The position numbers were made by a program, and so were the translations under genes. DNA of 62,058 nucleotides from the NCBI GenBank assembly GCA_046760445.1, contig JBHIEE010000002.1, forward strand, positions 1 through 62,058, in the 5' to 3' direction. Under the pieces are notes generated by a model. The model worked only from the letters and a program-made list of their open reading frames with translations, had not been told where the DNA came from and ran no database searches. The DNA is from Candidatus Aminicenantia bacterium. Lineage in GTDB: Bacteria; Acidobacteriota; Aminicenantia; JdFR-78. Of this stretch, positions 4,472 to 60,600 are shown one piece after another; position 1 is the first letter of the stretch, and each line of letters starts with the position of its first letter.

Positions 4472-4477
4472 TTAAAG

Positions 4478-8823: not shown

Positions 8824-8909
8824 GCCGAAGTGGCGGAATTGGTAGACGCGCTAGATTCAGGATCTAGTTCCCGATTTCGGGAGTAGGGGTTCGACTCCCC
8901 TCTTCGGCA
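8824..8909 (+). tRNA. tRNA-Leu (anticodon CAG), long variable arm
   Basis: Folded by eye: acceptor GCCGAAG/CTTCGGC, anticodon arm CTAGA-TTCAGGA-TCTAG, long variable arm, T arm AGGGG-TTCGACT-CCCCT, discriminator A. CCA not encoded. Confidence 0.9.
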
Positions 8910-9136
8910 TTATATCTTTTTTATTTTCTTAGAGTTAAAGAAAACCACTTAACCGGAATAAACTCTTTTTAAGTATCGTGAACAAAATCCTGACTTTTAT
9001 CTTCCCTTTTCTCTCGACAATTACCTTCTAATGTGCAGCCTTATTTTTTTAGTCTTAAACGAACTTAAATCATGAAATAGTTGCTTTTATAATATATTCT
9101 ATGTTATACGTAATTTTATAAATAAAGAGAGTTAGT

Positions 9137-9976
9137 ATGGATAACGAATTTAGCTATACATCTCTCGGCAATTCCGGGCTAAAGGTTTTTCGTCTCGGTT
9201 TGTCAGCAACCTATCGCCCCGGCAAGAAGACCATCTATAAGGCTATCGATGAGGGAATTAATTTTTTCTTTTATTTTCATATAGATACCCAGATGGTCAA
9301 GGTGCTCCGGGATGTGCTTCAAAAAAAGAGAGATAATTATATTGTTTCGACCGGGGCTTACAACCTTGTGTTCGGTCATCTGAACCTGCGTAAAAGCCTT
9401 GAGAAAAGGCTACGACAACTGAAAGTTGATTATATAGATATTTTCTATTTCCTTGGGGTGCTCAAAGAGAAGGAGCTAACAGATCATATTCTGATGGAAT
9501 TACAGCGATTCAAGGAGGAAGGTAAAATCCGTTTTTACGGCATTTCGACTCACAACCGAAAATTGGCGGGCAAGCTGGCATCCGATGGAGCGCTGGATGT
9601 CATCATGATGCGCTATAATGCGGCCCATCGCGGTGCCGAAAAGGAGATCTTTCCTTATCTTGAAGCTCACAAGCCTTTCATTGTCGGCTACACAGCCACT
9701 CGTTGGCGTTTCATGATGCGCCGCCCTAAAGGCTGGCCTAAGGATGAGCGTGTGCCCACCGCTGGTATGGCTTATCGGTTCGTCCTTTCTAATCCACATG
9801 TCAATGTTTGCCTGACCGCTCCGATGAATATGAAACAGCTTGAGGAGAATTTCGCTGCAGTCCGTAAAGGTTCCTTAAACGAGGAAGAAATGGAATTTAT
9901 GCGTAAATTCGGAGATAAGGTGCATGAGACCGCAGGTAAAGGTTTGGCAGGATTGATTCCTTTTTCAAAAAGCTAA
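9137..9976 (+). CDS. Aldo/keto reductase family oxidoreductase
   Basis: 279 aa. LRQLKVDYIDIFYF, GKIRFYGISTHN and VIMMRYNAAH are AKR-like blocks. Visibly GC-richer than flanking DNA. Confidence 0.75.
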   Translation: MDNEFSYTSLGNSGLKVFRLGLSATYRPGKKTIYKAIDEGINFFFYFHIDTQMVKVLRDVLQKKRDNYIVSTGAYNLVFGHLNLRKSLEKRLRQLKVDYIDIFYFLGVLKEKELTDHILMELQRFKEEGKIRFYGISTHNRKLAGKLASDGALDVIMMRYNAAHRGAEKEIFPYLEAHKPFIVGYTATRWRFMMRRPKGWPKDERVPTAGMAYRFVLSNPHVNVCLTAPMNMKQLEENFAAVRKGSLNEEEMEFMRKFGDKVHETAGKGLAGLIPFSKS

Positions 9977-24554: not shown

Positions 24555-24884
24555 GTGTCAAAAATAACATAAAAGAATATAAAAAACCACAGAGAACACA
24601 GATGAATAAAAAACTCCAAATTACAAATCCCAAATTACAAACAAATTCCAATGACCAAAATCCCAATGACCGAAACAAAAAATCAAGTAATTACGACTTA
24701 GAAGAGCGAATTTATCAGTTTGCTAAAAAAAGAAATCCTGGTAATTGTTTTGGTCATTGGTCATTAGAATTTGCCTGCCCTGTAGCATGCGAAGCATTGG
24801 TATAGGGGAATTTATTTGATATTTGGAGCTTGAGATTTGTGATTTAATATAATAGGTGACTTCTGTGGTTAAATTTGACAATAT
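24555..24884. mobile_element. MITE-like non-autonomous insertion carrying a four-helix-bundle-protein gene fragment, flanked by a 13-bp direct duplication
   Basis: ttatttccaggta occurs at 24542-24554 and 24885-24897. Inside: outer inverted aaccacagagaa / ttctgtggtt, and inner inverted word arms (ccaatgaccaaaatcccaatgaccgaaac / gttttggtcattggtcattag). The central piece encodes SNYDLEERIYQFAKK, like the N-terminus of TIGR02436-type four-helix-bundle proteins. Confidence 0.5.
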
Positions 24885-24908
24885 TTATTTCCAGGTAAGG
24901 AGGGAAGA

Positions 24909-26537
24909 ATGAAAAGAAAAAGAATTAATCTGGGATTAATCCTTGTTTTTGGGATTCTCGTTCTTTTTTTCAGTAATACATTTATTGAAGCAGAAGAAGA
25001 ACTTAACCAAGTGTGGGCAATTAAAGATTGTCGAATAGTTCCCATGAGCGGCTCAGTAATTGAGAAGGGAGTTGTGGTTATTCGTCAAGGACTCATTGAT
25101 GCAGTGGGGACTAACATAGACATACCAGCTGATGCAGAAATAATTGATGGTGCAAAATTAACAGTTTATCCGGGTTTAATGGATAGTCTAGGGAAATCTT
25201 TCCTTAAGCTCCCGGAGCAGAAGTTTGACTCTTCCAAGTTCTATACAGGTAAGTTCACTGATCAGGATCGCGGCTTAACTCCAGAGCTCAAGGCATTCGA
25301 TTATGTCGAGTTCGGTAAAACTGTCCTGGAAAAATTTCGTAAATTTGGTTTTACTAGTACTCAAGTAATGCCTGACCGAGGAATTCTCACTGGACAGGCA
25401 TCTGTTTTTTCCTTAAGCGATTCTGATAAAAACAAAGCCCTCCTTCTAAAAGATTCAGCCTTGGGGATTGGCTTCTCAGCAGGTGTTTTCGGCACCTACC
25501 CAAGTTCTCTAATGGGTATTGTTGCTTACCTGAGACAGACATTTTCTGATACGGCCTATTTTAATATGCATTCTCAGCGCTGGAAGAAAGAAATGATTTG
25601 GCTTACCAGACCTGTCTATGACCCAAAGCTTGAAACCCTAACTGATTTTGTGGTCAGAAGAAAGCCGATTATTTTCCTCTGTCGGAACCAAAATGACATT
25701 AAGCGAGCAATAAACTTAGGACAAGAATTTAAACTAAACTATTTTATCTGTGATTTAGGGGGAGAAGCTTTTAGAGTGATTCCCAAGTTAAAACAGGCGA
25801 AAGCCCGCCTTCTTCTAACCGTAAGATTCAAAGCCCCAGCTACCAGTATTTATGCTCAAAAAGGTAGAGAAGAAAGAGAAAAGGCAGAAAAAGAACTATA
25901 TCCTAAAAACCCAGCTAAAATGGCAGAAGCAGGTATTCCCTTTGCATTTTCTTCTCTGGGAATTGATGATCCAGAAAAGATGATTGAAGGAGTAATGAAA
26001 GCGATTGAGAATGGGATGTCTCATGAAAAAGCCCTTCAAGCTCTCACGATAATTCCTGCTTCTTTTTTAGGTTTTTCTAAAGCATTGGGAACAATTGAAC
26101 CAGGGAAAATAGCCAATTTAGTTTTGACCGAGGGAGATATCTTAACTAAAGAAGCCAAGGTTCGTTATGTTTTCACGGATGGAAAGAAATTTGAAATAAA
26201 AGAAAAGAAAGTAGAAAAAGGGAAGGAACCTACCGTTAATGTTACTGGTAGGTGGGAACTTTCTGTTGAAACTGGTATGGGTGCAATGACTATGACTGTT
26301 GAGTTCTTTCAGGAAGGATCGTCTCTTTCTGGTAAAATGACCACCCAATTTGGCGTCTTTGAATTTACAGAAGGAACAGTTTCTGGAAATGAAATTTCTT
26401 TTGATATGGTTATTTCAGTTGCTGGTCAGGAAATTGATCTTTACTTCTCAGCCATGGTAGAGAACGATACTATGACTGGTACTGTCATTCAGGGAACAAT
26501 GGGTTCGGCTGAGTTTACTGGTAAACGTATTCCTTAA
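24909..26537 (+). CDS. Exported amidohydrolase-fold protein, HxH motif absent (likely non-catalytic), with a C-terminal beta-rich extra domain
   Basis: Signal peptide. YPGLMDSLGKSF sits where amidohydrolases have PGxIDxHxH. C-terminal GKIANLVL... is typical of the family. Confidence 0.7.
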   Translation: MKRKRINLGLILVFGILVLFFSNTFIEAEEELNQVWAIKDCRIVPMSGSVIEKGVVVIRQGLIDAVGTNIDIPADAEIIDGAKLTVYPGLMDSLGKSFLKLPEQKFDSSKFYTGKFTDQDRGLTPELKAFDYVEFGKTVLEKFRKFGFTSTQVMPDRGILTGQASVFSLSDSDKNKALLLKDSALGIGFSAGVFGTYPSSLMGIVAYLRQTFSDTAYFNMHSQRWKKEMIWLTRPVYDPKLETLTDFVVRRKPIIFLCRNQNDIKRAINLGQEFKLNYFICDLGGEAFRVIPKLKQAKARLLLTVRFKAPATSIYAQKGREEREKAEKELYPKNPAKMAEAGIPFAFSSLGIDDPEKMIEGVMKAIENGMSHEKALQALTIIPASFLGFSKALGTIEPGKIANLVLTEGDILTKEAKVRYVFTDGKKFEIKEKKVEKGKEPTVNVTGRWELSVETGMGAMTMTVEFFQEGSSLSGKMTTQFGVFEFTEGTVSGNEISFDMVISVAGQEIDLYFSAMVENDTMTGTVIQGTMGSAEFTGKRIP

Positions 26538-29197: not shown

Positions 29198-29302
29198 TTT
29201 TCTTTTTTTATAGGTTATAAAAAAAGCTTGAAGATGGGATTTGAACCACTTTATTCTACTTAAGTTTTCAGAGGAAGAAATTTTCTAATAAGAAAACCGG
29301 AC

Positions 29303-29640
29303 CTCATTCCAAGTATTAATCCCACCATATACCCCTGGAGAGAATCAGCATAAGATAACCTGGTCTTAGGGACGCGATACCAATTAAAGCATTTTTTTAG
29401 TTATTACATTTGACTATTTTCTCTTTAAATATTATTATTTTATCAAATAAACAAAAGGAAACAACAGATTATGAAATGCTCCAAATGTCATTTTGATAAT
29501 CCCGCTGATACCCGCTTTTGCGGTAAGTGTGCAACCCCACTTCCTTCTCCAGATGAAATCTCTGTTTGCCATACTAAGACTCTCGAGACACCCATGAAAG
29601 ACTTAACCACAGGAATAACTTTGGCTGGAAAGTACAAGCT
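29303..29640 (+). repeat. Repeat R1: upstream region + promoter + Zn-ribbon 5' coding module shared with 43957-44295
   Basis: Aligned by eye with R2. The first ~120 nt have only a handful of mismatches. Similarity continues through the start codon and about 45 codons. Confidence 0.85.
29410..29438 (+). promoter_or_regulatory. sigma70-type promoter of kinase gene 1 (conserved in R2)
   Basis: TTGACT (29410-29415), 17 nt, TATTAT (29433-29438). Same boxes and spacing at 44064-44092. Confidence 0.5.
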
Positions 29641-31711
29641 CATTAAAAAACTGGGAGAAGGGGGCATGGGTGCCGTGTTTCTGGCCGAACAGACTGAGCC
29701 AGTCCGACGACGCGTTGCCCTTAAGATCATTAAACTAGGGATGGATACTAAACAGGTTGTGGCCCGCTTCGAGGCAGAGCGTCAGGCCCTCGCAGTAATG
29801 GACCACCCCAACATCGCCAAGGTCTACGATGGTGGAGCCACCCAGACAGGGCGTCCATACTTTGTGATGGAGCTTGTCCGTGGAATGCCTATTATTGAGT
29901 ACTGCGACAAACATAAACTCTCCATGCGCGAGCGGCTGGAGCTGTTCATTCCGATATGCCATGCGATCCAACATGCCCACCAGAAGGGTTTGATTCACCG
30001 TGATCTTAAACCCTCCAACGTGTTGGTGACGGTTCAGGACAATAAGCCTATTCCAAAGATAATCGACTTTGGCATCGCCAAGGCAATAGATCATCGCCTA
30101 ACCCAGCAGACACTCTACACAGAGCAGGGCCAGCTCATCGGGACACCTGAGTACATGAGTCCTGAACAAGCAGAGATGTCTGGTCTAGATGTGGATACGC
30201 GGACGGACATCTACTCCCTGGGAGTCATGCTCTATGAGCTATTGGTGGGAGTGCTGCCGTTTGACCCAAAAACACTCCGATCAGCTGGATTTGGCGAGAT
30301 TCAGCGAATCATTCGTGAAACTTATCCACCAAAGGCCAGCACTCGTCTAAGCAGCCTAGGCGATACCCAAAGCGTAATTGCTGAACACAGGCGGACAGAT
30401 CCGACTTCCCTTCATAGACAGCTTAAGGGCGACCTGGACTGGATTCTCATGAAGGCTATGGAAAAGGACCGTACACGCCGCTATGAAACCGCGAATGCTA
30501 TGGCCCTGGATATCCAGCGGCATATTAGCAACGAACCCGTCTTGGCTCGCCCTCCCAGCACCATGTACCAGCTACAAAAGCTAGTAGCGCGACACAAGAC
30601 TATATTTGCTTTTGTGGGATTACTGTTTGTGTTGCTTCTGGGATTCGCCATCACTATGACAGTGCAATCGGCCCGGATTGCCACCGAGCGTGATAGAGCC
30701 GATAGAGAAGCTACGAAGGCTATGGCTATCAACACGTTCCTAATGGAGACTTTAGGTTCAGCAAACCCGATTGAGGGAAGCAGCCGTGATATCACAGTAG
30801 TGGAGGCGCTGAAGACAGCAACTGAAAAAATCGCCGAGTCCTTTGTTGAACAACCAGAGGTAGAGGCAGAAGTCCGTCATACAATCGGGATTACATATCT
30901 AAGGCTCGGCCACTACGAGGACGCTGAGAAGTTGCTAAGGTCGGCATTAGAAATTTTTCAAAACACACTTGGTCGAGATCACCCGGATATAGCAGGACCG
31001 CTAACTAGTCTTGGTATATTAAGACATGAACTGGGTGATTATAATGAGGCTGAATCGCTTTATCGCGAGGCCCTGGCAATTAAACGCAAATTGCATGGAG
31101 ACGAAAATGAGGAAGTATTGAATATCTTGAATAACTTGGCTTTGTTAATTCAGGATAAAGGCGACATTGAGGCAGCCGAGCCACTATTCCGAAAGATCTT
31201 GGAAGTTGACCGTAAGCTATTGGGAAAGGAGCACCTTAATGTGGCAATTGACCTCAACAATCTTGGCAGGCTTCTTCAGAAAAAAGGGGATTATGAGTCA
31301 AGTGAGCTGCTGCTTCGGGAGGCAGTTACCATCCTCCGGAAGAAACAGCATCCATGGTTGTCCATAGGCTTAAGCAATCTGGGTGAGTTGCTGAATAAAA
31401 AGGGCGATTATAAGGCGGCCGAGCCGATTTTCGTCGAGGCTCTATCGATTGGGTTGAAGTATCTTGGTGATAAGAATCAGGATGTGGCTAAGCTTCGAAG
31501 CAGGTACGGTGCGTGTCTGATTAAGCTGAAACGTTTTGAAAATGCGGAAGAGCAACTCCTCGCTGCTCTCCCGGTCTTGCGCGATAGCCTGGGTGAACAG
31601 AATGAAAGGACTCAGCAGACGATCAGCTATCTTATCGAACTGTACGAAGCTTGGAGTAAAGAAGATAAGGCGGCTGAGTATCGAGCTCTTCTTGCCTCGC
31701 AAAGACAATAA
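29471..31711 (+). CDS. Hanks-type Ser/Thr protein kinase with N-terminal Zn-ribbon, one TM helix and C-terminal TPR (TPR_10/12-like) repeats
   Basis: CSKCHFDN...FCGKC; GEGGMGAVFLA, VALKII, HRDLKPSN, DFGIAK, SPEQ; TM IFAFVGLLFVLLLGFAITMTV; repeated LNNLA/LG--Y-EAE-L TPR units. The gene body is much GC-richer than its first ~170 nt. Confidence 0.9.
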   Translation: MKCSKCHFDNPADTRFCGKCATPLPSPDEISVCHTKTLETPMKDLTTGITLAGKYKLIKKLGEGGMGAVFLAEQTEPVRRRVALKIIKLGMDTKQVVARFEAERQALAVMDHPNIAKVYDGGATQTGRPYFVMELVRGMPIIEYCDKHKLSMRERLELFIPICHAIQHAHQKGLIHRDLKPSNVLVTVQDNKPIPKIIDFGIAKAIDHRLTQQTLYTEQGQLIGTPEYMSPEQAEMSGLDVDTRTDIYSLGVMLYELLVGVLPFDPKTLRSAGFGEIQRIIRETYPPKASTRLSSLGDTQSVIAEHRRTDPTSLHRQLKGDLDWILMKAMEKDRTRRYETANAMALDIQRHISNEPVLARPPSTMYQLQKLVARHKTIFAFVGLLFVLLLGFAITMTVQSARIATERDRADREATKAMAINTFLMETLGSANPIEGSSRDITVVEALKTATEKIAESFVEQPEVEAEVRHTIGITYLRLGHYEDAEKLLRSALEIFQNTLGRDHPDIAGPLTSLGILRHELGDYNEAESLYREALAIKRKLHGDENEEVLNILNNLALLIQDKGDIEAAEPLFRKILEVDRKLLGKEHLNVAIDLNNLGRLLQKKGDYESSELLLREAVTILRKKQHPWLSIGLSNLGELLNKKGDYKAAEPIFVEALSIGLKYLGDKNQDVAKLRSRYGACLIKLKRFENAEEQLLAALPVLRDSLGEQNERTQQTISYLIELYEAWSKEDKAAEYRALLASQRQ

Positions 31712-31749: not shown

Positions 31750-31890
31750 GAGATATCCTTACTCCCAAGTGGCAAAGATAAAGCCATAGAGCATTATCAG
31801 AAATTTCTCAATCTCTGGAAGGATGCTGACCCTGGTATTTCTGAATTAATCGATGCTAAAAAGCGACTAACTACCCTAAAAAGTCAGTAA
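31750..31890 (+). pseudogene. Orphan 3' fragment of a TPR/kinase-type gene
   Basis: The frame opens right after a stop and reads ...[40 protein letters not shown] recognise this as a C-terminal tail of TPR/kinase proteins of Acidobacteria/Aminicenantes-like genomes. No upstream coding body. Confidence 0.55.
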
Positions 31891-32041
31891 TTTTCTGTAT
31901 TGGCTGATTAGTTGATCTTTCTGACACTACTTTGCTTTTTATTTTAAAGAGAAGAATAGTGCAGAATTAATTATGTGGTTGAATTAATCCTTTTTTTTTG
32001 ATATGTAAGAAAGTGTTTGAAAAAGAAGAGATCAATTCAAA

Positions 32042-32452
32042 ATGAAGACATTAAAAATTACAAGTGATCTTACAGAGTTAGACAAAATAAGAAGTTTTTT
32101 GAAAAAAAATCTCAAGGGATTGAATATTTCAGATAAAGATTACTATAAAATTGAGCTATCACTACTGGAAATATGTGTAAATATCATCAGATATGCCTAT
32201 CCCAAGGAGAAAGGCGAGATCTCCTTTAAGACTTGGCATCGAGAGGGAAAGATATTTTTAGAAATAAGGGATAAGGGTATTCCTTTTGATCCAAGAAAAG
32301 CGAAGAAGCCTGATATAGGGGAAATCATCAGGAATGAGAAAAAAGGTGGATTAGGAATTCTCCTTTCCTCCAAGCTTATGGATGGATTTGATTATAAGCG
32401 AGAAAATAATCAGAATATTCTGACTATGTATAAGAAAATTAAAGAGGCTTGA
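32042..32452 (+). CDS. Anti-sigma-factor-type Ser kinase (RsbW/SpoIIAB-like HATPase_c_2)
   Basis: 136 aa. ELSLLEICVNIIRYAY (N box), IRDKGIPFDP (G1), GGLGILLSSKLMD (G2). Confidence 0.8.
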   Translation: MKTLKITSDLTELDKIRSFLKKNLKGLNISDKDYYKIELSLLEICVNIIRYAYPKEKGEISFKTWHREGKIFLEIRDKGIPFDPRKAKKPDIGEIIRNEKKGGLGILLSSKLMDGFDYKRENNQNILTMYKKIKEA

Positions 32453-32461
32453 GCCTCGGAA

Positions 32462-33289
32462 TCAGTATAAGACTTTATCCTCGCCCTGCTTCTGGATAAG
32501 TTTGTCGATTTCCTTGAGTATCAGCTCCTTCCGAGTGAGGACAGCGTTAATTTCTTTATCTTTCAAATATTCCCCGACAATGTCTTTTATCAATTCAAAA
32601 TTCAAGGCCTTTATTTTCTCGACAAAAGCCCGGGGAAGCTCTCTCATAAGCTTTGGTCCTTCTTTATGTTTCTCGGTAAAGATGAGTTCTTTAGTGAATT
32701 TTTTGGAAGATCTGAAGGAACGGGAGTGGTCGATGAGGATCATACGCCAATCCTTAGTAATGAGAATATTCCCCGCATGACGGTCTTCGTTGCCAATCAA
32801 GTTATCGAAGGCTCGTTGCAAGTAGATTGCCCTATTCCAATAGAAGACTTTGTAAGAGGGAATTTTAATTTTTCTCTCATTTTTCTCCCTAAGTTTCATT
32901 TCATATTCCACCCATAATTGACAGGAGCCTCGATCTCCCTGAAATCTTCTTTCCACAGTGGGTGAGACCATATTCAGACCTAAATACTTGTCTAATCGGT
33001 AGGCAGCGATTTCCCATTTCCAGCCTTCAATATACCCTTTCATCCGGCCCTCTGGGTTCTTCCACAACGCATCTCTAGTGATGCCGTCTTTTTCCAGAGT
33101 CAGCACCCAGGGTTCAGTGACTGCCTCTCGCCCTTTCTTCTGGTAAAAACTTGTAATTTCTGCTGTTTTGAGGAATTCTTCCCATTTGGCTCTTTCTGCC
33201 AGTTCTTCTGGAGTGAACTGAGCTATGGATTGAAAATGAAAACCCAGGAAAATTATAAAGAAGAAAAAGGTAATGATTCTTTTATTCAT
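32462..33289 (-). CDS. Exported PI3K/PI4K-like (SCO1664/HipA-like fold) putative kinase, paralog A1
   Basis: Signal-like N-terminus MNKRIITFFFFIIFLGFHFQSIA|Q. EIAAYRLDKYLGLNMVSPTVERRFQGDRGSCQLWVE. GNEDRHAGNILI (DRHxxN catalytic-loop-like). ILIDHSRSF (DFG-position equivalent). Confidence 0.55.
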   Translation of the reverse strand: MNKRIITFFFFIIFLGFHFQSIAQFTPEELAERAKWEEFLKTAEITSFYQKKGREAVTEPWVLTLEKDGITRDALWKNPEGRMKGYIEGWKWEIAAYRLDKYLGLNMVSPTVERRFQGDRGSCQLWVEYEMKLREKNERKIKIPSYKVFYWNRAIYLQRAFDNLIGNEDRHAGNILITKDWRMILIDHSRSFRSSKKFTKELIFTEKHKEGPKLMRELPRAFVEKIKALNFELIKDIVGEYLKDKEINAVLTRKELILKEIDKLIQKQGEDKVLY

Positions 33290-33356: not shown

Positions 33357-34178
33357 TTAATACAAAACTTTATCTTCGCCTTTTTCTTTTATCATTTCAT
33401 CGATCTCCTCTAAAAGAAGCTGTTTGCGGATGAGAATAGCTTTTATCTCTTTGTCCTTCAAATAGGGACCCACAGCTTTTTTGATGTTATCAAAGTTCAA
33501 GGTTTTAATCTTTTCCACGAAAGCCCGAGGAAGTTTTCTGAATGGTTGAGGGCGACCTTCGGCATTCTTTCCAAAAAGGAGTTTCTCAGTGAATTTCTTA
33601 GAGGAACGGAAAGAACGGGAATGGTCGATGAGAATCATACGCCAATCCTTGGTATAGCGGATATTTTGCTGGGTTCGGTCTTCGTTGGCGATCAAACTGT
33701 CAAAAGCTCTCATTAAATACTTCATTTTGCTCCAATGGTCGGACTTAGTAGGAGGAATCTGAATTTTTTGTTCCATTCTTTCAAGATCGCTGTATTCATG
33801 CTCAACCCAAAGCTGAAGAGACCCTCTCTTCCCCCTAAATCTTCTCTCGACTGTGGGCGGAACCATATTTAACCCCAAAAGTTTATCCATCTCGTAAGCA
33901 GCGATTTCATACTGCCATCCTTCAAGGTAGCCCTTCTGGATACCGCTGGGGTTCTTCCATACACCATTTCTTTCTACATCTCCCTTTTTTAAGTAGACCT
34001 CAATCGGCTTTGTAACACCTTCCCTTATATCTTTGTATTTTACTATCTCTGCAGTTTTGAGGAATTTTTCTATTTCTTCCCTTTGGGCAATCTCAGCAGG
34101 AGTGAACTGTCCGTTGGCCTTATAGCTTTGAGCTATGAGAAGAAATAGAGTGATAATAAGAAAAATTTTTCGTTTCAT
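33357..34178 (-). CDS. Exported PI3K/PI4K-like putative kinase, paralog A2
   Basis: ORF 33357..34208. Start moved to ATG 34178 behind AAGGAG, giving MKRKIFLIITLFLLIAQSYKA|NGQ. Same blocks as A1 (EIAAYEMDKLLGLNMVPPTVERRFRGKRGSLQLWVE, ANEDRTQQNI, ILIDHSRSF). Confidence 0.55.
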   Translation of the reverse strand: MKRKIFLIITLFLLIAQSYKANGQFTPAEIAQREEIEKFLKTAEIVKYKDIREGVTKPIEVYLKKGDVERNGVWKNPSGIQKGYLEGWQYEIAAYEMDKLLGLNMVPPTVERRFRGKRGSLQLWVEHEYSDLERMEQKIQIPPTKSDHWSKMKYLMRAFDSLIANEDRTQQNIRYTKDWRMILIDHSRSFRSSKKFTEKLLFGKNAEGRPQPFRKLPRAFVEKIKTLNFDNIKKAVGPYLKDKEIKAILIRKQLLLEEIDEMIKEKGEDKVLY

Positions 34179-34260
34179 TTTTTTCTCCTTATTCGAAGCT
34201 TTCCCCAAAATATTTTGATAATAATATAACTCTATTTTTTTAGAAAATCAAATCAAAACA

Positions 34261-39243: not shown

Positions 39244-39591
39244 ATGGTAATAAATACAAGAGAAAAAAACGATATCGTTATTTTTGACATTGAGGGAGAA
39301 ATCAAAAGATCGGAGATAACCGATGTAACTCTACACCAGATCGTTAAAGATCAATTAGATACCGGCAAAAGGAATATACTCTTAAATTTTGAGAAAGTTG
39401 AACTTATTGATAGCTTTGGAGTAGGAGAGATTTTAGCCAGCTACATTTCCACTCACAATTTAGGGGGAAAGCTGAAGCTCGCAAAAATATCAAAAAAACT
39501 TTACCTTGTCTTTCAAGTCACAATGCTTACTAATGTTTTTGAAATATTCGATGATGAGGAAGTGGCATTAAAAAGCTTTTTTAAAGAATAG
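39244..39591 (+). CDS. STAS domain anti-sigma-factor antagonist (RsbV/SpoIIAA-like)
   Basis: 115 aa. ...VELIDSFGVGEILASY contains the phosphorylatable Ser position (DS-G). Confidence 0.8.
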   Translation: MVINTREKNDIVIFDIEGEIKRSEITDVTLHQIVKDQLDTGKRNILLNFEKVELIDSFGVGEILASYISTHNLGGKLKLAKISKKLYLVFQVTMLTNVFEIFDDEEVALKSFFKE

Positions 39592-42163: not shown

Positions 42164-43840
42164 ATGTCGAAACTATTTGTTTATCCGAAAAAGGGGGAGG
42201 TATTTTGTTTTCCTCTCAAAAAAGAAAAAATATCTATCGGGCGTTCCGCTGACAATGACATCTCCACTCCTGATCCATTTTGTTCAGGGCATCATGCCTT
42301 CATTTATCCTTCGGAAGTGGGATATGTGGTTCGAGATAATAACAGCAAAAATGGAACCTTTGTTAATGGCAAAAAAATTCAATCCGAGACCGAACTCAAG
42401 AAAGGAGATGAAATCCTTATTGGCTCAACAAGGATTGTCTTTGATAAGGAACTTTCGACAAATATTGAAGTTGTGGAGATTCCATCCCCCTCTGCAAATG
42501 TAAATACCATAATTCATCTTAAAGAGATTCTGAAGAAGCCCGATATCGAGACAACTTTGAAAGCTAATGCAACACCTTTTGATTTGGAAAGGATCAAATC
42601 AGAACATAAAGCTTTTTCCGTGTTAAGTGAAGTCAGTAAAACTCTTATTTCCCATAGGCCCCCAGAAGAACTCTTAGACCATATCATGGATTTAATTTGC
42701 CAGAATCTCCCTATGGACAGAGGGATTCTGATGCTAAAAGAAGGAAATCCTGCTCAATTAATTCCAAAAGTTGTTCGTATCAATAACAAGAACCTTAAGA
42801 ATCAGAAAATTCAGGTGAGTCAAAGCATAATCAATATGGCTGTTAATAAGCATTCGTCAGTCCTCACTTATGATGCCCAAGCTGATCCTCGTTTCAGGAC
42901 TAAGGAGAGCGTTATTAAATCCAACATCCATTCGGCAATGTGTGTTCCTTTATGGAATAACAAGGAAATTATAGGAATAGTCTATTCAGACCGGATATAT
43001 CTCCTTGACCGGTTTTCGGATGAAGATCTAAAACTGTTGACTCTCTTATCCAATTTGGCTGCGATCAAGATCGAAAATGCTAAGCTTATCGAGCAAGCCA
43101 TCGAGAAAGAAAAGATTGAAAAAGAGCTTGCGTTGGCTGCCCAGATTCAAAAAGACTTTCTTCCTAAAGAAGATCCTGAGTGCGAAAATTTTAAAATCGC
43201 TGGCTCCAACATCTCTTGTTATCATGTTGGTGGGGATTATTATGATTTTATCACTATCGATCCTTGTCGCTTAGGGATTATTATTGCTGATGTTTCTGGG
43301 AAAGGAATTAGTGCTTCCCTTCTCATGGCTTCTTTAAGAGCAGCTCTTCATTCAGAGGTTCATCCTCAATACAAGTTAGAGGAAATGGCGGCTAAATTGA
43401 GCAATTTCGTTCACCGCAGTTCTGCCCAAAATCGTTTTATAAGTTTTTTCTTTTGCGAATTAAACAATAAAAGTGGCGAGCTAAGATATATCAATGCTGG
43501 ACATAATCCTCCCCTTATCCTCGATAGAAAAGGGAAAATTCATCGTTTGAAAAGCTGCGGCTTGTGCTTGGGTATGTTTCCTTCTGTTACTTATGAAGCG
43601 AAAAAAGTCACTTTAAAAGCCGGTGATATGGCCCTTCTTTTTACAGATGGAATCACCGAAAGTCGGAATAAAGAAAAAGAAGAATTTAATGAGAAAAGAC
43701 TCATAAACCTCCTTAAAAAGCATTCTAAATTACCTGCCCAGAAACTTCTGGAAAAAATTTTTGATGAAATCAATTTATTCACCTCTGGTGCTGACCAAAT
43801 GGACGATATGACTCTCGTCATCATTAAAAGAATCTCTTAG
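42164..43840 (+). CDS. FHA-GAF-PP2C (SpoIIE/RsbU-type) phosphatase
   Basis: FHA (ISIGRSADNDI...NSKNGTFVNGKKI), GAF (DRGILML...), SpoIIE-type PP2C (GGDYYDF, IADVSGKG, NAGHNPP, FTDGITE, DDMTLV). Confidence 0.85.
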   Translation: MSKLFVYPKKGEVFCFPLKKEKISIGRSADNDISTPDPFCSGHHAFIYPSEVGYVVRDNNSKNGTFVNGKKIQSETELKKGDEILIGSTRIVFDKELSTNIEVVEIPSPSANVNTIIHLKEILKKPDIETTLKANATPFDLERIKSEHKAFSVLSEVSKTLISHRPPEELLDHIMDLICQNLPMDRGILMLKEGNPAQLIPKVVRINNKNLKNQKIQVSQSIINMAVNKHSSVLTYDAQADPRFRTKESVIKSNIHSAMCVPLWNNKEIIGIVYSDRIYLLDRFSDEDLKLLTLLSNLAAIKIENAKLIEQAIEKEKIEKELALAAQIQKDFLPKEDPECENFKIAGSNISCYHVGGDYYDFITIDPCRLGIIIADVSGKGISASLLMASLRAALHSEVHPQYKLEEMAAKLSNFVHRSSAQNRFISFFFCELNNKSGELRYINAGHNPPLILDRKGKIHRLKSCGLCLGMFPSVTYEAKKVTLKAGDMALLFTDGITESRNKEKEEFNEKRLINLLKKHSKLPAQKLLEKIFDEINLFTSGADQMDDMTLVIIKRIS

Positions 43841-43855
43841 CAATCCAAGCAGGAG

Positions 43856-44041
43856 ATGTGCTCTATGATTGGCAAAACCATCTCCCATTGCAAACTCCTC
43901 GAAAAACTTGACAGAGGAGGGATGCTGGGTAAGATCTACCAAGAGAAAGGCAGGAGCTCATTTCAGGTATTAATCCCATCATATACCCCTGGAGAGAATC
44001 AGCATAAGATAAACTGGTCTTGGGGATGCGATACCAATTAA
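43856..44041 (+). pseudogene. Orphan 5' fragment of a Ser/Thr kinase gene fused to repeat R2
   Basis: MCSMIGKTISHCKLLEKLDRGGM... resembles the common kinase start IGKTISHY-ILEKLG-GGMG for about 23 codons. It then degenerates and runs into the R2 repeat, ending at 44041. Confidence 0.5.
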
Positions 44042-44295
44042 AGCATTTTTTTAGTTATTAAATTTGACTATTTTCTTATTAAATAATATTATATTGTCAA
44101 ACAAGCAAAAGGAACAATGAATTATGAAATGCCCTAAATGTCATTTTGAAAATCCCGCTGATACCCGTTTTTGCAACAACTGTGCAACACCACTTCAACC
44201 CTCAGAGGAAATCTCTATTTCTCAGACGAAGACTCTCCAAATACCCATGAAAGAGATAACCATTGGAAGCACTTTTGCTGGAAGGTACCAAGTCA
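43957..44295 (+). repeat. Repeat R2 (second copy of the promoter + Zn-ribbon module)
   Basis: See R1. Offset between copies is 14,654 bp, same orientation. Confidence 0.85.
44064..44092 (+). promoter_or_regulatory. sigma70-type promoter of kinase gene 2
   Basis: TTGACT (44064-44069), 17 nt, TATTAT (44087-44092). Confidence 0.5.
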
Positions 44296-46898
44296 TTGAA
44301 GAGCTTGGGAGAGGGGGCATGGGCGTGGTCTACAAAGCCAAGGACAATAAACTTAAACGCACCGTCGCATTGAAATTTCTCACACCCAAAGCCTTGGGAA
44401 GTGAGGAGGAAAAAACGCGTTTTGTGCATGAGGCGCAAGCTGCCGCAGCATTGGATCATCCTAACATTTGTACAGTCTACGAAATTGATGAAGCTGAAGA
44501 GCCTGCCCCGGTGGGCAGGCAAACCTTCATTGCGATGGCTTATATCAAAGGTCAAAGTCTAAAAGAGAAGATCGAATCAGGCCCCCTGAAACTGGATGAA
44601 GCGCTGGACATTGCCATACAGGTTGCAGAGGGCTTGCAGGAGGCACATGAGAAAAGGATCGTTCACCGAGACATCAAAAGTACCAACATTATGGTAACAG
44701 AGAAAGGTCAGGCAAAGATAATGGATTTTGGGTTAGCCAAGTTAGCTGAGGGAACGAAGCTTACCAAGGCGGCAACGATCATGGGTACGGTGGCATACAT
44801 GTCGCCGGAGCAGGTGAGGGGGGAAACGGTCGATCACCGCACGGACATCTGGTCGCTGGGTGTTGTGTTGCATGAGATGGTCACCGGGCAATTGCCCTTC
44901 AAAGGGGAGTATGAGCAGGCGGTGATGTATTCGATTTTGAATGAAGGTTCAGAGCCGTTGACAAGCGTGCGAAGTGGCATACCATTGGAGTTTGAAAGAA
45001 TCGTAAACAAGTGCTTGGAGAAGGACCCAACCGAGCGCTACCAGACTACCGCCGACTTGAAAGCAGACCTGAAGCGTTTGAAGCGCGACATAAGTTCAGG
45101 AAAGGCTGCTGTCCACATCGCAACGGCTGCCGTACCGCATCCTTTCCAGCGGCTTCTGCGTAAGACTGCTGTCCCCCTTACCGGGGTGATTATAGCAATG
45201 CTATTGTTATTGCTGCTGTCCTCAAACCGAAGAGCTGTAAAGAAGTGGTTGGGTTTTGAGGCGATACCTGCTGAGAAGCATCTTGCAGTGCTCCCCTTCA
45301 CCATTGTAGGCGGTGACTCAGAAGACCAGGCTTTTTGTGACGGCCTGGTGGAAACTTTTACCAGTAAGCTCACCCAACTGGAGCGCTTCCAAGGGTCGCT
45401 ATGGGTCGTGCCCGCGAGTGAGGTACGTGAACGGGGAATTACCAGCGTTAGCGAAGCCAGGAGGGCTTTTGGGGTCAATCTGGTTGTAACCGAAAGTATG
45501 CAACGCATAGATGACATGCTTCAGTTGACGTTGAACCTCGTTGATACGAAGACTCTGCGCCAACTGAGATCCGAAGTTATCAAAGGTGGTATTAACAATC
45601 TTTCTGATATGCATAACAATGCCGTCATCAAACTGGTCGGGATCCTAGACATAGAATTACAACCACAAACGAGTAGGGTATTAACCACTGGAGGCCCCAC
45701 TGTACCGGACGTTTCCGAATTATATGTGAAAGCCCGCGGTTACATGCAACGCTACGAGAAGGAGGAAAATCTCGACACTGCAATTAGCTTGTTTAAGCGA
45801 GCGATTGATAAAGATTCTTCTTATGCCTTGGCCTATGCAGGATTGGGGGAAGCCTATTGGCGCAAGTACAAACTTACGAAAGACCCCAACTGGGTTAAAA
45901 TAGCTCAATCATATTGTAACCGTGCAATTCAGCTCAGTGAAAGTTTGGCGCCAGTCCATGTCACGCTCGGAATCATTTATAGAGATACTGGTCGATATGA
46001 GGACGCCATTAAAGAATTTCAGCAGGCATTATTGCTTGATCCTGTAAACTCTGATGCTCACCGAGAATTAGCTTCGGCCTATGAGAAGCTCGGAAAACTA
46101 GAAAAAGCAGAAGCGACATATAAAAAAGCTATTGAATTGAGGCCAAGTTATTGGGCGGGTTACAGCTATCTAGGCGTTTTTTATTACTTCCAAGGCCGCT
46201 ACACTGAGGCAGAAAAAATGTTCCTCAAGGTTACGGAATTAACGCCGGACAATATTCGTGGTTATAATCTTTTGGGGGCTGTCTACCTTCAAATGGGTCG
46301 AATTGATTTGGCAACGGCAATGTTAAAAAAATCCCTCGCCATCAAACCTGATGCGGTCACCTACTCCAATTTGGGTACTTTATACTTTTATCAACGCAGG
46401 TATGCCGACGCCACGGCTATGTATGAAGAGGCGATCAAGTTGGGAGAGAATAGATATACGATTTGGGGGAATCTGGCTGATACTTACCGATACATGCCTG
46501 GATATTCGGAAAAGGAACGGGAAGCTTATCAACGCGCCATTCAATTAGCTGAGAAAGAACTGGAAATTAATCCTAAAGATGCCCACCTTCATGGAAATTT
46601 AGCCTTCTATTACGCAATATTAGGAAACCATAAAAATGCACTGACTAAAATCTCCAAGGCTCGAAAATTGGCGCCAAATGATGTATGGGTTCTCCGCAAA
46701 TGCGTCCAGGTCTTTGAACTCGCCAATCAACGCGACCAAGCACTTCAAGCTCTCGAAGAATTTATTAAACGAGGCGGCTCCATAGACGAAGTTCATAAAG
46801 ACCCTGATCTTTCTGAACTCCGTAAAGATCCTCTTTACCAACAATTGGTCATGAAAGAAGAATCCACTGTATTTGATTCTCCCGATATAAACAAATGA
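44124..46898 (+). CDS. Hanks-type Ser/Thr protein kinase with N-terminal Zn-ribbon, TM helix, extracytoplasmic domain and TPR repeats
   Basis: CPKCHFEN...FCNNC; GRGGMGVVYKA, VALKFL, HRDIKSTN, DFGLAK, SPEQ; TM VPLTGVIIAMLLLLLLS; then a ~130-aa domain and multiple TPRs (AYAGLGEAYW, AHRELASAYEKLG...). Confidence 0.9.
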   Translation: MKCPKCHFENPADTRFCNNCATPLQPSEEISISQTKTLQIPMKEITIGSTFAGRYQVIEELGRGGMGVVYKAKDNKLKRTVALKFLTPKALGSEEEKTRFVHEAQAAAALDHPNICTVYEIDEAEEPAPVGRQTFIAMAYIKGQSLKEKIESGPLKLDEALDIAIQVAEGLQEAHEKRIVHRDIKSTNIMVTEKGQAKIMDFGLAKLAEGTKLTKAATIMGTVAYMSPEQVRGETVDHRTDIWSLGVVLHEMVTGQLPFKGEYEQAVMYSILNEGSEPLTSVRSGIPLEFERIVNKCLEKDPTERYQTTADLKADLKRLKRDISSGKAAVHIATAAVPHPFQRLLRKTAVPLTGVIIAMLLLLLLSSNRRAVKKWLGFEAIPAEKHLAVLPFTIVGGDSEDQAFCDGLVETFTSKLTQLERFQGSLWVVPASEVRERGITSVSEARRAFGVNLVVTESMQRIDDMLQLTLNLVDTKTLRQLRSEVIKGGINNLSDMHNNAVIKLVGILDIELQPQTSRVLTTGGPTVPDVSELYVKARGYMQRYEKEENLDTAISLFKRAIDKDSSYALAYAGLGEAYWRKYKLTKDPNWVKIAQSYCNRAIQLSESLAPVHVTLGIIYRDTGRYEDAIKEFQQALLLDPVNSDAHRELASAYEKLGKLEKAEATYKKAIELRPSYWAGYSYLGVFYYFQGRYTEAEKMFLKVTELTPDNIRGYNLLGAVYLQMGRIDLATAMLKKSLAIKPDAVTYSNLGTLYFYQRRYADATAMYEEAIKLGENRYTIWGNLADTYRYMPGYSEKEREAYQRAIQLAEKELEINPKDAHLHGNLAFYYAILGNHKNALTKISKARKLAPNDVWVLRKCVQVFELANQRDQALQALEEFIKRGGSIDEVHKDPDLSELRKDPLYQQLVMKEESTVFDSPDINK

Positions 46899-46992: not shown

Positions 46993-47307
46993 ATGTCAAA
47001 TCATAATCATACCATTAAAATTTTTGTGGACGATGCTGGGAACATTTCTTACGACTTTCCCAGCCTTAGGTTAAAACGGGGGGATACCATTGAATGGGTT
47101 TGTACAAACGAATATACTTTTACTGTTCATATGGGTTGGGGTACACCTCTTGGTAAAGGGCGTAGCCAAACATCTCAAAAAGGTATAATCCGCGAGACAG
47201 TCCGAGAAAATGCACTGAATGGTCGCTATAAATATTTTGTTGCTGTTTATGATAAAAAAAGAGATAAAATCTGGACCGACGATCCTGAGCTTATCATCGA
47301 ACCCTAA
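46993..47307 (+). CDS. Hypothetical small protein
   Basis: 104 aa, GGAGG RBS. No family recognised. Confidence 0.45.
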   Translation: MSNHNHTIKIFVDDAGNISYDFPSLRLKRGDTIEWVCTNEYTFTVHMGWGTPLGKGRSQTSQKGIIRETVRENALNGRYKYFVAVYDKKRDKIWTDDPELIIEP

Positions 47308-50866: not shown

Positions 50867-51329
50867 TTTCTTTAGAATGACTTGCGTATTGCTTTAAAAC
50901 TTTTTCTGGTAGACCCTATATTTTATAGCTTCCTCCCATCATCTCTGCTGCCCTCTGAGTTAAAATGTTATCTTCAAGAACCTAGGAAACCTCACACCAT
51001 TTATCCCCAGCCTTTCTTGCTCCTTTTAATGATTCAAGGTAAAGAAAATACTTTCCTTTTAAATGAAATCATCTGGGTAGAAATGAAGTTGACCCAGAAC
51101 AATACTTATTTAATAACTGAGCAATAAAAATGTCAATTGAGATTGAAAACCTAGCGGAGGTTAATCTTCCTTTTCAGATCCCATCATGGATAAGATCCGT
51201 AGTGAATGGTGATGTTTAAAAAATCACAATGATGCGCTACCCTATTTGAAGAAAATTATGGAAGAATGAATTAATTGATATATTAATTAAGTAGTTATAT
51301 ACAATATGTTGATACTAAATTACTTAAAA

Positions 51330-58587: not shown

Positions 58588-60267
58588 TTATTCTTCGACA
58601 AACTGCTGCACAAAGTATTTAGCAGTTAATGGCTCACCAGTAGCTCTTTCAATCATTTCATCCCAGGGATAGCGAGCACCTGGTTTCAACACTTTTTCCT
58701 TAATATAAGCTCCAATTTCTTTGTTATTTACATAGGATAAGCTTGCTGGACTCTGGTGAAGAATATTGTTAGTAATATAATTATGTAATTGAGAAGCCAG
58801 CATTTCACCTAACATATAATTGTGATAATAAACTGGAGCAGAGGTAAAATGAATTTTAGCTGCCCAATCCGGTTTATCTCTGTTTTCAGGTCGCGTAACG
58901 AACTGGTATTTCTCGACCATATCCCACCAGAGATTATTTAAATCTTGGTCAGGATTTTTATATAGTTCTCTTTCAAAATTGAACATTACTTGAGTCCAGC
59001 GAGCAAATATTAGTTGCTTAATGCGTAAGCTCTTTTTTACAATTTGTTTTATTTTTTCAACTTCAGATTCTTCCAGGCCTAATATATCTCTCATCCAATT
59101 AGGATCTCGGGAAAGCCGGCCAAATAACATAGCAATCGCCTCAGTGGTAAAAATATGAGCATATCTTCTTAAGAAAAAGGGAAGCTCGGGATTAATATAT
59201 TTGCTGTATATTCCGTGGCCGAATTCATGAAGAAGTGTTTCCATCCATTGTTCGTTATCCTTAACATTAGCCAATACTCGAACATCTCCTTTTCGGTCAA
59301 TATTGGTGCAATAAGCATGAGGATTTTTTCCTTCTTTTTCATAGAGATCGCTTCTTTCCAAAATATCCTTTATGGAAAGTGCAATACTGTTATAAAATTT
59401 AATCACTAATTCCTCTAAGTTTTTCCCTTTATAGTACTTATCCAGGTCAATTTCCTCCATGGTGGGAGCTTCCTGAAAGAAAGGATCATTGTAATGCCAT
59501 GGGCGGAGCTCTTCTTTCTTAATCCCGTATCGCCTGGATAAGGTCTCATCAAGTTCATCTTTTAATTTTCTAAAGGGGTCATCAGTTAGTTCTTTTAGTT
59601 CATTGAAGATCTTAACCAGTTCCTCTTCCTCTTGTTCCCTGAGAGTAAGAGCCATCGTGTAGTAATTGCCAAATCCGAGCTGATGAGCAGCCTCATTTCT
59701 AAGTTTGACCAGTTTGACTAAATTTTCATTCACTTCTTCCCCAACCTGTTTGCTTGCTAACCAGGCTTTTTTCCTTTTTCCTATATTCTTTGTTTCGGTC
59801 TTTAAAATTTCGCGAATGAAACTGTCTGTTACTTCCTGACCATCCATTTTGCCACGGAAGGTGTTAAACTGTTTTTCAACTGTGGTACTTAATTTGACTA
59901 TTTGTTCTAAAAGCTGTTTATCAATCTGATTCTCTAAGTAATCGTTGTAGATAATGGTCAACTGACGTTTGAGTAAGGGATCTTCAACTTTTCCAGATTC
60001 CTTAATTTTCTTCAACTCAGCAAAATCTTCTTTATTGGAGTAAATATTTACCAATTCCAACTGCAATTTCTCATATCGGTCGTAATCTTCTTTTTTACCT
60101 GTAATACTGGCATTCCAGTAAGCTAAATTAGTCTCTTTTAAAAGAGGTTCTACTTTTTCTTGATGCTGCTGAATAAAATTAGATAAATCCTTTTCAACTT
60201 TTTTGGTCGTGGGTGTACAAGAAGCTAATAAAAATCCGATAATAAAGAAAATAACTAAGTTTTTCAT
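58588..60267 (-). CDS. Clan MA zinc metallopeptidase lipoprotein (ACE-like M2 / M3-like)
   Basis: ORF 58588..60300 (TTG). Start set to ATG 60267 behind AAGGAGG. Lipobox FLLASC. HEFGHGIY zinc motif. ACE-like N-terminal NLAYWNASITG. Confidence 0.7.
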   Translation of the reverse strand: MKNLVIFFIIGFLLASCTPTTKKVEKDLSNFIQQHQEKVEPLLKETNLAYWNASITGKKEDYDRYEKLQLELVNIYSNKEDFAELKKIKESGKVEDPLLKRQLTIIYNDYLENQIDKQLLEQIVKLSTTVEKQFNTFRGKMDGQEVTDSFIREILKTETKNIGKRKKAWLASKQVGEEVNENLVKLVKLRNEAAHQLGFGNYYTMALTLREQEEEELVKIFNELKELTDDPFRKLKDELDETLSRRYGIKKEELRPWHYNDPFFQEAPTMEEIDLDKYYKGKNLEELVIKFYNSIALSIKDILERSDLYEKEGKNPHAYCTNIDRKGDVRVLANVKDNEQWMETLLHEFGHGIYSKYINPELPFFLRRYAHIFTTEAIAMLFGRLSRDPNWMRDILGLEESEVEKIKQIVKKSLRIKQLIFARWTQVMFNFERELYKNPDQDLNNLWWDMVEKYQFVTRPENRDKPDWAAKIHFTSAPVYYHNYMLGEMLASQLHNYITNNILHQSPASLSYVNNKEIGAYIKEKVLKPGARYPWDEMIERATGEPLTAKYFVQQFVEE

Positions 60268-60291
60268 TAGACCTCCTTTCTTTAAAATGAG

Positions 60292-60600
60292 TATTGTCAA
60301 ATTTAACCACAGAGGTCACAGAGAACATATAACTATAAAAACACTTATCCGTGTTTTTATACTTCTCTCCTCTGTGTGCTCTGCAGAGTTAACCTCTTTA
60401 TCTCATTGTTTTCTCTCTGTTGAAATTTATCAATGTATCTAATACCTTGCTTCATTGTCTTTAAGTTAAATGAACTTTCATAATACAAAAGATTATTTTT
60501 GCTATTGTGTTCTCCCCGAGTACTCGTGGGAGAACACAGAGATTTGAATTCTCTGTGTTCTCTGACTTCGACGAGCTCAGTCGAGTCGTGGTTTTCGTAT
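60292..60600. repeat. Cluster of element-family sequences: conserved terminus tattgtcaaatttaaccacaga, cacagag words and nested palindromes
   Basis: 60292-60313 is identical to the reverse complement of 24862-24883. Degenerate opposite end ttctctctgttgaaatttatcaatg at about 60411-60435. Palindrome tgtgttctccccgagtactcgtgggagaacaca at about 60507-60539. cacagag-atttgaatt-ctctgtg follows. Confidence 0.6.

Follow-up and report, generated by a model that had tools for sequence, protein, structure and literature searches.

In a 62,058-nt stretch of the genome of a Candidatus Aminicenantia bacterium (contig JBHIEE010000002.1 of assembly GCA_046760445.1; hereafter the window), two Ser/Thr kinase genes, K1 (29471..31711, + strand) and K2 (44124..46898, + strand), open with a shared segment of promoter, leader and N-terminal coding sequence. 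We put at about 65% the probability that K2 is an old chimera, formed by recombination between paralogues at conserved motifs, and that K1 later received a short gene-conversion tract, both within a 5' unit that recurs throughout a kinase family. What the two genes share is the 5' unit found throughout a large family of paralogous membrane Ser/Thr kinases; it consists of a sigma-70-type promoter with its leader, a four-cysteine zinc ribbon (ZnR) and a linker of ~30 residues that runs to the glycine loop. K1 encodes a protein of 746 aa with a ZnR, a Hanks-type kinase domain, a transmembrane (TM) segment and TPR_12/TPR_10 repeats, and K2 one of 924 aa with a ZnR, a Hanks-type kinase domain, a TM segment, a periplasmic domain and TPR_1/2 repeats; the difference in C-terminal architecture proposed in an earlier reading of this DNA (the original prediction) was thus found. 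The TPR families were taken from Pfam matches, and both TM segments and the periplasmic domain of K2 were read from the sequence. Pkinase (PF00069, cut-off 31.7 bits) matched K1 with 144.8 bits (4e-42) and K2 with 193.7 bits (5e-57), the glycine loop, HRD, DFG and SPEQ being readable in both, and both genes are intact.

The original prediction held that 29303-29640 and 43957-44295 align colinearly, and local alignment within the window bore this out over a greater extent, 29284-29670 pairing colinearly with 43935-44323 with four gaps of 1-2 nt. This pair accounts for the two longest direct repeats of the 62-kb window (D1, 217 nt at 79%; D2, 181 nt at 87%). Identity between the copies was 94% (92/98) in segment 29303-29400 and 84% (58/69) in segment 29401-29470, with a sharper break near 29422 by mismatch count in the local alignment (7 mismatches in the 120 nt of 29303-29422, but 11 mismatches and one gap in 29423-29470, which is only 48 nt long). 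Across promoter and leader together it ranged from about 75% to 84%. The coding part, 29471-29671, was 82% identical, with a synonymous divergence (dS) of 0.46, a nonsynonymous divergence (dN) of 0.195 and dN/dS of 0.42; the shared coding start had been correctly seen, its length being 60-67 codons rather than the ~45 proposed. Where K1 and K2 share a residue, the same codon was used in fractions of 0.94, 0.82 and 1.00 in the first three 20-codon bins and of 0.44 or less afterwards, while third-position identity fell from 0.60-0.75 in the module to 0.12-0.53 past the glycine loop. That the kinases diverge past this loop is thus confirmed, the whole proteins being 39% identical over 356 aa, and codon sharing and segment identities alike show that similarity does not fade evenly along the genes. 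The segment accordingly has the raised identity with abrupt drops at its bounds that is expected of a gene-conversion or other recombinant tract, and tract and flanks have different closest relatives, clearly so for K2 and more weakly for K1 (p = 0.004, uncorrected).

The 5' unit was followed through a family scan that took one genome per species. An N-terminus of the K1/K2 type is encoded at 73 loci, nearly all of them in Candidatus Aminicenantes and several per genome (at least 5 in OY970261.1 and 6 in CAZIDN01). TTGAC was found in 53 of 65 upstream regions, nearly always at -55 to -66 from the ATG, and the promoter spacer and leader were also conserved (ATTTGACTcTTTtCTCATTAATTGtTATtCTTTTGCCA...AGGGAAC), with TTGACTATTTT invariant in four loci, namely K1, K2, one K1 orthologue and one gene of another genome that belongs to the ~1000-aa kinases which we call X-type. 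The conserved hexamer spacer and a GGGAAC-type ribosome-binding region were likewise seen in the upstream regions of L003-L062, K1, K2 and the K1 orthologue locus L075. This family-wide conservation of promoter and leader suggests, at the level of sequence, a shared operator or regulon for ZnR kinases. Within the module, the four cysteines (C3, C6, C17 and C20) were 100% conserved in 77 aligned modules and form two CxxC knuckles at conserved spacing, putatively binding a metal, and N10, T35, T37, G48, A52 and Y55 were conserved at 94-100% (T35 at 96%, T37 at 97%); T35-x-T37-L38 (TxTL) we take to resemble a predicted phospho-threonine motif of the kind bound by FHA domains. Pfam scores for the ZnR of K1 were 20.5 bits for PF13240 Zn_Ribbon_1 (cut-off 25) and 19.7 bits for PF12773 DZR (cut-off 27.3); for K2 neither was among the 25 families listed, and many homologues carry precomputed matches to both. 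No work on this kinase family, or on ZnR kinases in Aminicenantes, was found in the literature.

For most of the segment, the near-identity of the two 5' ends does not reflect a private exchange between K1 and K2. The promoter and module of K2 were as similar to those of other species (79.6% over 260 nt to L082, 81% to L008 and 81% to L083) as to those of K1, and most of the near-identity is therefore conservation at the level of the family. By its sequence, only the upstream block of ~120 nt (94%) calls for a recent exchange within the genome. The same observations could be taken to mean that K1 and K2 are nothing more than old paralogues in which the N-terminus has been kept better than the rest, as the ZnR module is conserved at 60-79% across the whole family and its coding identity between K1 and K2 is no higher than that between K2 and other species; this is contradicted by the 94% non-coding identity, by the abrupt break in codon sharing, and by the start relic and the incongruent relatives of module and body set out below, and we consider it very improbable.

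On the evidence of its relatives, K2 is a true chimera, in which the module was grafted onto a kinase body of ZnR-less ancestry. Among the 120 homologues with the best scores to the K2 body, only two (P0066 and P0085) had a ZnR Pfam match. The closest ~60 are 57-69% identical and nearly all 846-882 aa long (858-875 aa for the nearest bodies), and the 16 of these that were read all lack the ZnR and start with MIGxxISHY, except for the truncated P0004 and the variant P0053. Three are positional orthologues of K2 (P0002 in L079, P0005 in L080 and P0009 in L081) and have the short start without ZnR; each is followed by a homologue of the small conserved gene downstream of K2 (46993..47307, + strand; 47% in L080, 32% in L079) that served as the synteny marker, and the 75% nucleotide identity between the K2 locus and L079 continues beyond the stop codon. 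The K2 module (44124..44324, + strand; ZnR, linker and glycine loop), in contrast, is of X-type origin: at the aa level it is 72-79% identical to the modules of X-type kinases in other genomes and 64% identical to that of K1. It is 72-75% identical to those of the X-type loci L008, L003, L009 and L012, the kinase domains of which are only 37-40% identical to that of K2, while the K2 kinase domain is 70-75% identical to those of the ZnR-less P0002, P0005, P0009 and P0011.

The original start of K2 is still recognisable. A start profile, built from the first 66 nt of the three positional orthologue genes, had its best match in the window at 43865-43924 (+ strand), directly 5' of the module, where 20 codons leading to the glycine loop are preserved (nhmmer E = 7.8e-9) with AGGAG ~9-10 nt 5' of their ATG. 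The stop codon of an FHA-GAF-PP2C (SpoIIE) phosphatase gene (42164..43840, + strand), a probable former operon partner, lies 24 nt before this displaced start. Other kinases in the same metagenomes join position 43889 or 43910 straight to 44312 or 44316, skipping 405-426 nt of the window; an exact look-up of K2 in public assemblies returned no record. The original prediction, that recombination or gene conversion placed the module before two kinases, stands in that both 5' ends appear to have been shaped in this way and K2 carries a graft, and falls in that K1 was not grafted. A 13-codon relic of a canonical kinase start was also observed at L008 5355-5407, overlapping the stop of an X-type kinase and 95% identical over 41 nt to 43865-43905, and across the community the 5' coding stretch with the canonical start is unusually conserved in DNA, with a depth of 100-190x against a baseline of 28x.

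The block inserted at K2 opens directly past GGM with LGKIYQEKG, and X-type kinases share the motif MLGKIYEQKG ~40 residues from their C-terminal end (15 tails from 14 loci), the full tail closing with EVEDAKKRL. The second copy of the upstream block (43925..44076, + strand) thus begins with an X-type tail motif and continues as a decayed tail, an A/T tract and the -35 hexamer; past the motif its alignment to the X-type tail is colinear but weak (p about 0.05). Copy 1 (29284..29422, + strand), which is non-coding, likewise ends in an A/T tract and the -35 hexamer and is 94% identical to 43935-44076, is probably the decayed 3' end of an X-type kinase gene. A protein search with the module alone recovered short proteins only (few candidates were scored), among them no donor, and revealed minigenes. 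One of these, P0241 (L082 5001-5345, on a 102-kb contig), runs from the ZnR through GGMG|SKIYQKKG to LWKDANPG and a stop, and P0242 (L083 3063-3362) is similar. L082 matched the window in three pieces, namely promoter and module (44064-44323, as above), the junction (43915-43954; 77.5% over 40 nt, E = 0.008) and the tail (31780-31900), and the K2 insert can therefore be described as a circular permutation of such a minigene or, equivalently, as the junction of two tandem X-type genes; at a tandem junction in L012, ~17 nt separate the tail stop from the -35 hexamer of the ZnR gene that follows. Further broken kinase open reading frames were seen on long contigs of other Aminicenantes genomes, where P0243, P0249 and P0285 stop at the glycine loop and P0246 has a duplicated loop (GKGGMGKGGM), and the glycine loop looks like a recurrent breakpoint.

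The fusion appears to be old. In L002, a syntenic locus from another Aminicenantes metagenome-assembled genome, the first 474 nt are the 3' end of the SpoIIE gene (86.5% identical, dS 0.40), and ~225 nt beyond the phosphatase follow the family promoter, the ZnR module and a frameshifted, truncated pseudogene of a K2-type kinase (699-1188). As the ZnR-K2 fusion stands at the same place in L002, it would predate the split of the two lineages, and the earlier claim of a host-adapted module set before two independently acquired bodies was not upheld, since the fusion already lies behind the orthologous phosphatase gene.

The main rival to an insertion at K2 is a deletion within a tandem array, by which the start relic and tail relic at 43865-44050 would be what is left of a kinase gene in its own right, emptied between GGMGxVY and YMLGKIY, and K2 the next gene, already with its ZnR. 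The same deletion exists as an open reading frame elsewhere (the GGMG|SKIYQKKG junction of P0241, and similarly P0242), truncated relics are common (L008, P0243, P0249), tandem kinase genes occur in L003/L009 and in L012, and L002 has a ZnR with a K2-type kinase and no detectable start relic. Against this, at each of the three positional orthologues the shared small gene is preceded by one kinase only, which lacks the ZnR and opens with precisely the start seen in the relic, and the incongruent relatives of the K2 module and body would need a second recombination event anyway. Tandem deletion fits the synteny less well than insertion, and we consider it unlikely.

K1 differs from K2 in that it has inherited its ZnR, as judged from its homologues. 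At 64-75% identity, the nearest relatives of the K1 body are proteins of 744-750 aa, and those read have an N-terminal ZnR and the linker TKTLETPIKDLTxGxTIAGKYKL, except for the 5'-shortened P0146 and the ZnR-less P0152 and P0154. Because its orthologues carry the ZnR, K1 would carry it natively, and the linker of K1 also finds its best match in K1 orthologues; the claim that a module was grafted onto K1 was therefore rejected. The K1 module (29471..29671, + strand), with its four-cysteine ZnR, TxTL linker and glycine loop GEGGMG, is X-type/K2-like in its first ~55 nt and K1-type in the rest. As a protein it is 70% identical to that of P0125 against 64% to that of K2, and in a further comparison with P0123 and P0125 the K1 kinase domain was 84-85% identical and the module 64-68%. 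Coding nucleotides 31-60 (NPADTRFCGKC) are 50% identical to K1's own orthologues against 83-93% to X-type and K2 sequences, an order that is reversed from about nt 90, and informative sites favoured the X-type by 10:0 up to nt 55 and stood at 8:10 thereafter (p = 0.004 from two orthologue DNA sequences, uncorrected for the breakpoint scan). The first ~55 coding nucleotides of K1 were probably overwritten by K2-like sequence, and its upstream DNA looks overwritten in the same way. Between the upstream regions of K1 and of its orthologue in L075, only the promoter aligns. A candidate short-start relic to the left of the K1 copy gave p = 0.04 in local alignment but nothing by nhmmer and was rejected. 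The public gene call for K1 (P0121) starts at Met42 and spans 705 aa, by which the ZnR (29471-29593) is hidden, and the ZnR may be undercounted in the annotation of this family.

An intact relic of an X-type C-terminal tail, 38 codons long, is also found 63 nt past the K1 stop (31774..31889, + strand; tail hidden Markov model (HMM) i-E 7.8e-16), and is 79% identical over 121 nt (31780-31900) to the tail of the L082 minigene. In L075 (8310-8365) the K1 orthologue is followed by the same junction, the anchor AAAGCCATAGAGCAT standing 71 nt past the stop in both. The distal half of the L075 copy is decayed, while the window copy has no stop or frameshift, a preservation that exceeds what is expected of a neutral relic; the window copy may have been refreshed by conversion from intact paralogues, or may be selected.

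The TTGACT-17-TATTAT promoter said to be common to both genes was present in both copies (K1, 29410..29438; K2, 44064..44092; both + strand), is sigma-70-like and matches 10 of 12 consensus positions, with the hexamers 17 nt apart, inside the 16-18 nt expected of such promoters, and at the conserved position. Of the ~95 nt of upstream similarity that had been described with a weak hairpin and T-run, the similarity was confirmed (94% over 98 nt), while a terminator scan found no intrinsic terminator at this site on the + strand of either copy; the sequence folds as a mere A-U hairpin with z-scores of 0.2-0.5, not negative, and the T-run adjoins the -35 hexamer on its upstream side, the position expected of an A/T-rich UP-like tract. 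No RNA fold of the 113-nt upstream block beat shuffled sequences on either strand of either copy (z +0.2 to +1.4), and when the whole window was compared with Rfam the only matches at or above the gathering score were two tRNAs, the block having none. The search for further copies that had been suggested found the module at the 73 loci and kinase homologues without a ZnR, as described, and, with 85% identity as the lower bound, limited the block to two copies in the source metagenome; in contigs of Joint Genome Institute (JGI) metagenomes an exact 20-mer of the block had 0 matches, and nothing like it was found 5' of 60-odd other family members.

These data bear on the possibility that the ~120-nt block is a functional cis-element (an UP element, a regulator-binding region or a small transcript) held by purifying selection since an old duplication, with no recent exchange. 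The block does adjoin the -35 hexamer with its 3' part an A/T tract at the UP-element position, the promoter itself is conserved across species, and the block has diverged by 6% against a proportion of synonymous differences (pS) of 0.34 at adjacent sites; however, similar sequence is absent 5' of the 60-odd family members, from the syntenic L002 (p = 0.10) and from the JGI metagenomes, there is neither an RNA structure signal nor an Rfam match, and the block resembles decayed coding sequence. We regard such an element as quite unlikely. Since 94% identity is far above what a pS of 0.31-0.34 at this depth of divergence would leave, the block argues for recent exchange within the genome. Because the K2 copy runs unbroken into its own junction, and because the fusion appears ancestral at the K2 locus, transfer from K2 to K1 is favoured, without proof.

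The repeat is not an assembly artefact. In two independent runs of the same hydrothermal-vent study, a 313-nt unitig (run X2) spanned 43841-44153 and a 220-nt unitig (run X1) spanned 44126-44345, each with 0 differences, and jointly they phase the relic, the module and the K2 body; depth was 28-30x at all four flanks of the repeat copies. It was also observed that k-mer assemblies break within the repeat. A small mobile element (a remnant of a miniature inverted-repeat transposable element or insertion sequence) with an outward promoter, or a misassembly, might be suspected from two dispersed, sharp-ended copies within which contigs of an independent assembly end, but no inverted repeat was reported at the copy ends, only two copies exist, what they hold is promoter and coding sequence of the kinase family itself, and the unitigs and even depth speak against misassembly; of all the explanations weighed we give this one the least credence.

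In base composition both kinases are outliers, as had been claimed. The G+C content at third codon positions (GC3) is highest in K1 (0.51) and second in K2 (0.48, essentially level with the gene at 9137..9976) among 41 genes, the mean of the other 39 genes of the window being 0.318 +/- 0.056. The break that had been described as abrupt at the module boundary proved weak, the step from the modules (0.40 in K1, 0.42 in K2) to the bodies (0.52 and 0.49) being modest and small for 67 codons. The gene at 9137-9976, which encodes an aldo/keto reductase, is a third compositional outlier beside the two kinases (GC3 0.48, z = 3.0).

Several observations weigh against an old chimera at K2 followed by conversion of K1. 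Identity within the repeat is patchy (94%, about 75% and 87%), a pattern that a single conversion followed by drift does not predict, and the left ends of the K1 copy and of the K2 insert coincide, which conversion from K2 to K1 does not predict either. The identification of the 98-nt block as a tail relic depends on a 10-residue motif and on the colinear alignment at p about 0.05, and the tail HMM, run against the six-frame translation of the window, does not match the block, although it hits 31774-31887 strongly. The K1 mosaic was tested with few sequences, as stated. In L002 the start relic was not detectable, the alignment of its spacer to that of the window was insignificant (p = 0.10), and a second gene 1.8 kb off (3001-5574) joins a ZnR to a K2-type kinase domain (76% to K2) and an L008-like sensor half, another mosaic, so that the combination of ZnR and K2-type kinase is not unique to the source genome. 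The donor locus was not found, there being no third copy of the block in the source metagenome or the JGI metagenomes and only donor-type relatives (L082, L012).

For the chimera and later conversion that we prefer, the following course would account for the junctions. The ancestor of K2 would have been a short-start kinase gene that probably shared a transcript with the FHA-GAF-PP2C phosphatase gene before it. A block of ~400 nt, holding the decayed 3' tail of an X-type gene, an A/T spacer and the promoter and ZnR module of the next gene, would have recombined into the glycine-loop codons of K2, stranding the old start upstream and providing a new promoter and N-terminus. The right junction would be a crossover in the glycine loop, and the left one would have formed either where MLGKIY resembles MGVVY or within the glycine loop of a minigene. 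The sequence does not distinguish homology-facilitated illegitimate recombination from a double crossover or a single crossover of Campbell type. This would have taken place before the split from the L002 lineage. Much later, a gene-conversion tract would have swapped ~120-140 nt upstream of K1 for K2-type sequence, and the same or an earlier event probably swapped the first ~55 coding nucleotides of K1. As to functional consequences, we infer that K2 would have been uncoupled from the phosphatase operon and placed under the family promoter with a ZnR-linker extension, and that K1 and K2 would be under common transcriptional control, presenting a shared ZnR/TxTL docking surface.

The process has known counterparts, and the novelty is modest, this being a new example of recombination among paralogues at conserved motifs. 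Ectopic gene conversion and segmental recombination among bacterial paralogues are familiar from tufA/tufB, rRNA operons and pilE/pilS-type cassettes, with which the present case shares a short tract of high identity, sharp drops, incongruent relatives of tract and flank, and truncated copies as possible reservoirs. Unlike in pilE/pilS-type systems, the tract holds a promoter, a leader and an N-terminal domain, not an antigenic loop, and this genome has two copies of the block and no sign of a dedicated recombinase or of many silent cassettes. Homology-facilitated illegitimate recombination was reportedly described by de Vries and Wackernagel in 2002, and the likeness to illegitimate or Campbell-type events lies in one junction within the homologous glycine loop, the other at a short similar motif (GGMGVVY against YMLGKIY), and an insert that is a circular permutation of the L082 unit; the mechanism at K2 is read from the junction sequences alone.

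Among characterised kinases, residues 41-319 of K2 align to residues 2-281 of PknB of Mycobacterium tuberculosis (E = 6e-60), and PDB sequence matches do not reach K2 residues 1-40. Like PknB-like kinases with extracytoplasmic TPR sensors, K1 and K2 combine Pkinase with TPR families; unlike PknB, they have an additional ~40 residues of N-terminal ZnR and linker and belong to a multi-copy family mostly confined to Aminicenantes. PknG of M. tuberculosis has a rubredoxin-like zinc domain, a kinase domain and TPR repeats, is soluble, and packs its rubredoxin domain on the kinase. K1 and K2 likewise have a Cys4 metal site N-terminal to the kinase and TPR repeats C-terminal to it, whereas their ZnR is a minimal CxxC-10-CxxC ribbon at the extreme N-terminus and is followed, past the kinase, by a TM segment, with no evidence that the zinc parts are homologous.

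Components of partner-switching systems were observed near both kinases, namely an RsbW-like HATPase_c_2 gene after K1 (32042-32452) and, before K2, a STAS protein gene (39244-39591) and the FHA-GAF-PP2C phosphatase; the K2 orthologue locus L080 likewise has HATPase_c_2, STAS and sigma-70 genes. Just past K1, two genes on the - strand, 32462-33289 and 33357-34208, are tandem paralogues (repeats D3, D6 and D10; GC3 0.475 and 0.433), the former with weak, sub-cut-off matches to PI3_PI4_kinase and ABC1 and the latter with no Pfam match, and they may be atypical kinase-like proteins. Elsewhere in the window, a 48-nt inverted repeat (24856-24903 and 60272-60319, 85% complementary) holds TTGACA...AGGAGG in its arms, which lie just 5' of the starts of the genes 24909..26537 (+ strand) and 58588..60300 (- strand), another gene pair with a common promoter and leader. 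Two tRNA-Leu genes (CAG and GAG; 8824-8952 and 51287-51415) have 129 nt in common at 81%, extending ~43 nt beyond the tRNA.

The mosaics of K1, K2 and L002, the minigenes P0241/P0242, the broken kinases P0243/P0249/P0285, the duplicated loop of P0246 and the tail relic behind K1 in two genomes point toward a wider process of cassette shuffling, in which the promoter-ZnR unit and the 'LWKDADPG' tail would act as homology arms, kinase and sensor bodies would be swapped repeatedly among paralogues and genomes, the glycine loop and MLGKIY would be hot spots, and minigenes would be the reservoir. This is speculative, and we think it on balance improbable; if true, it would mean a recurrent wiring of new sensors into one co-regulated kinase regulon. 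The two loci are of interest mainly because the old start survives as a relic, breakpoints recur at the glycine loop and the promoter unit is found across the family. They suggest that the promoter and N-terminal domain of a signalling gene can be exchanged in one step, by recombination at a motif of a few codons, with the discarded start codon retained as proof. If the family promoter is a real regulatory unit, dozens of sensor kinases in each Aminicenantes genome would be under common control, and any body recombined behind the unit would join the regulon, a simple route by which signalling may be rewired in an uncultured phylum.

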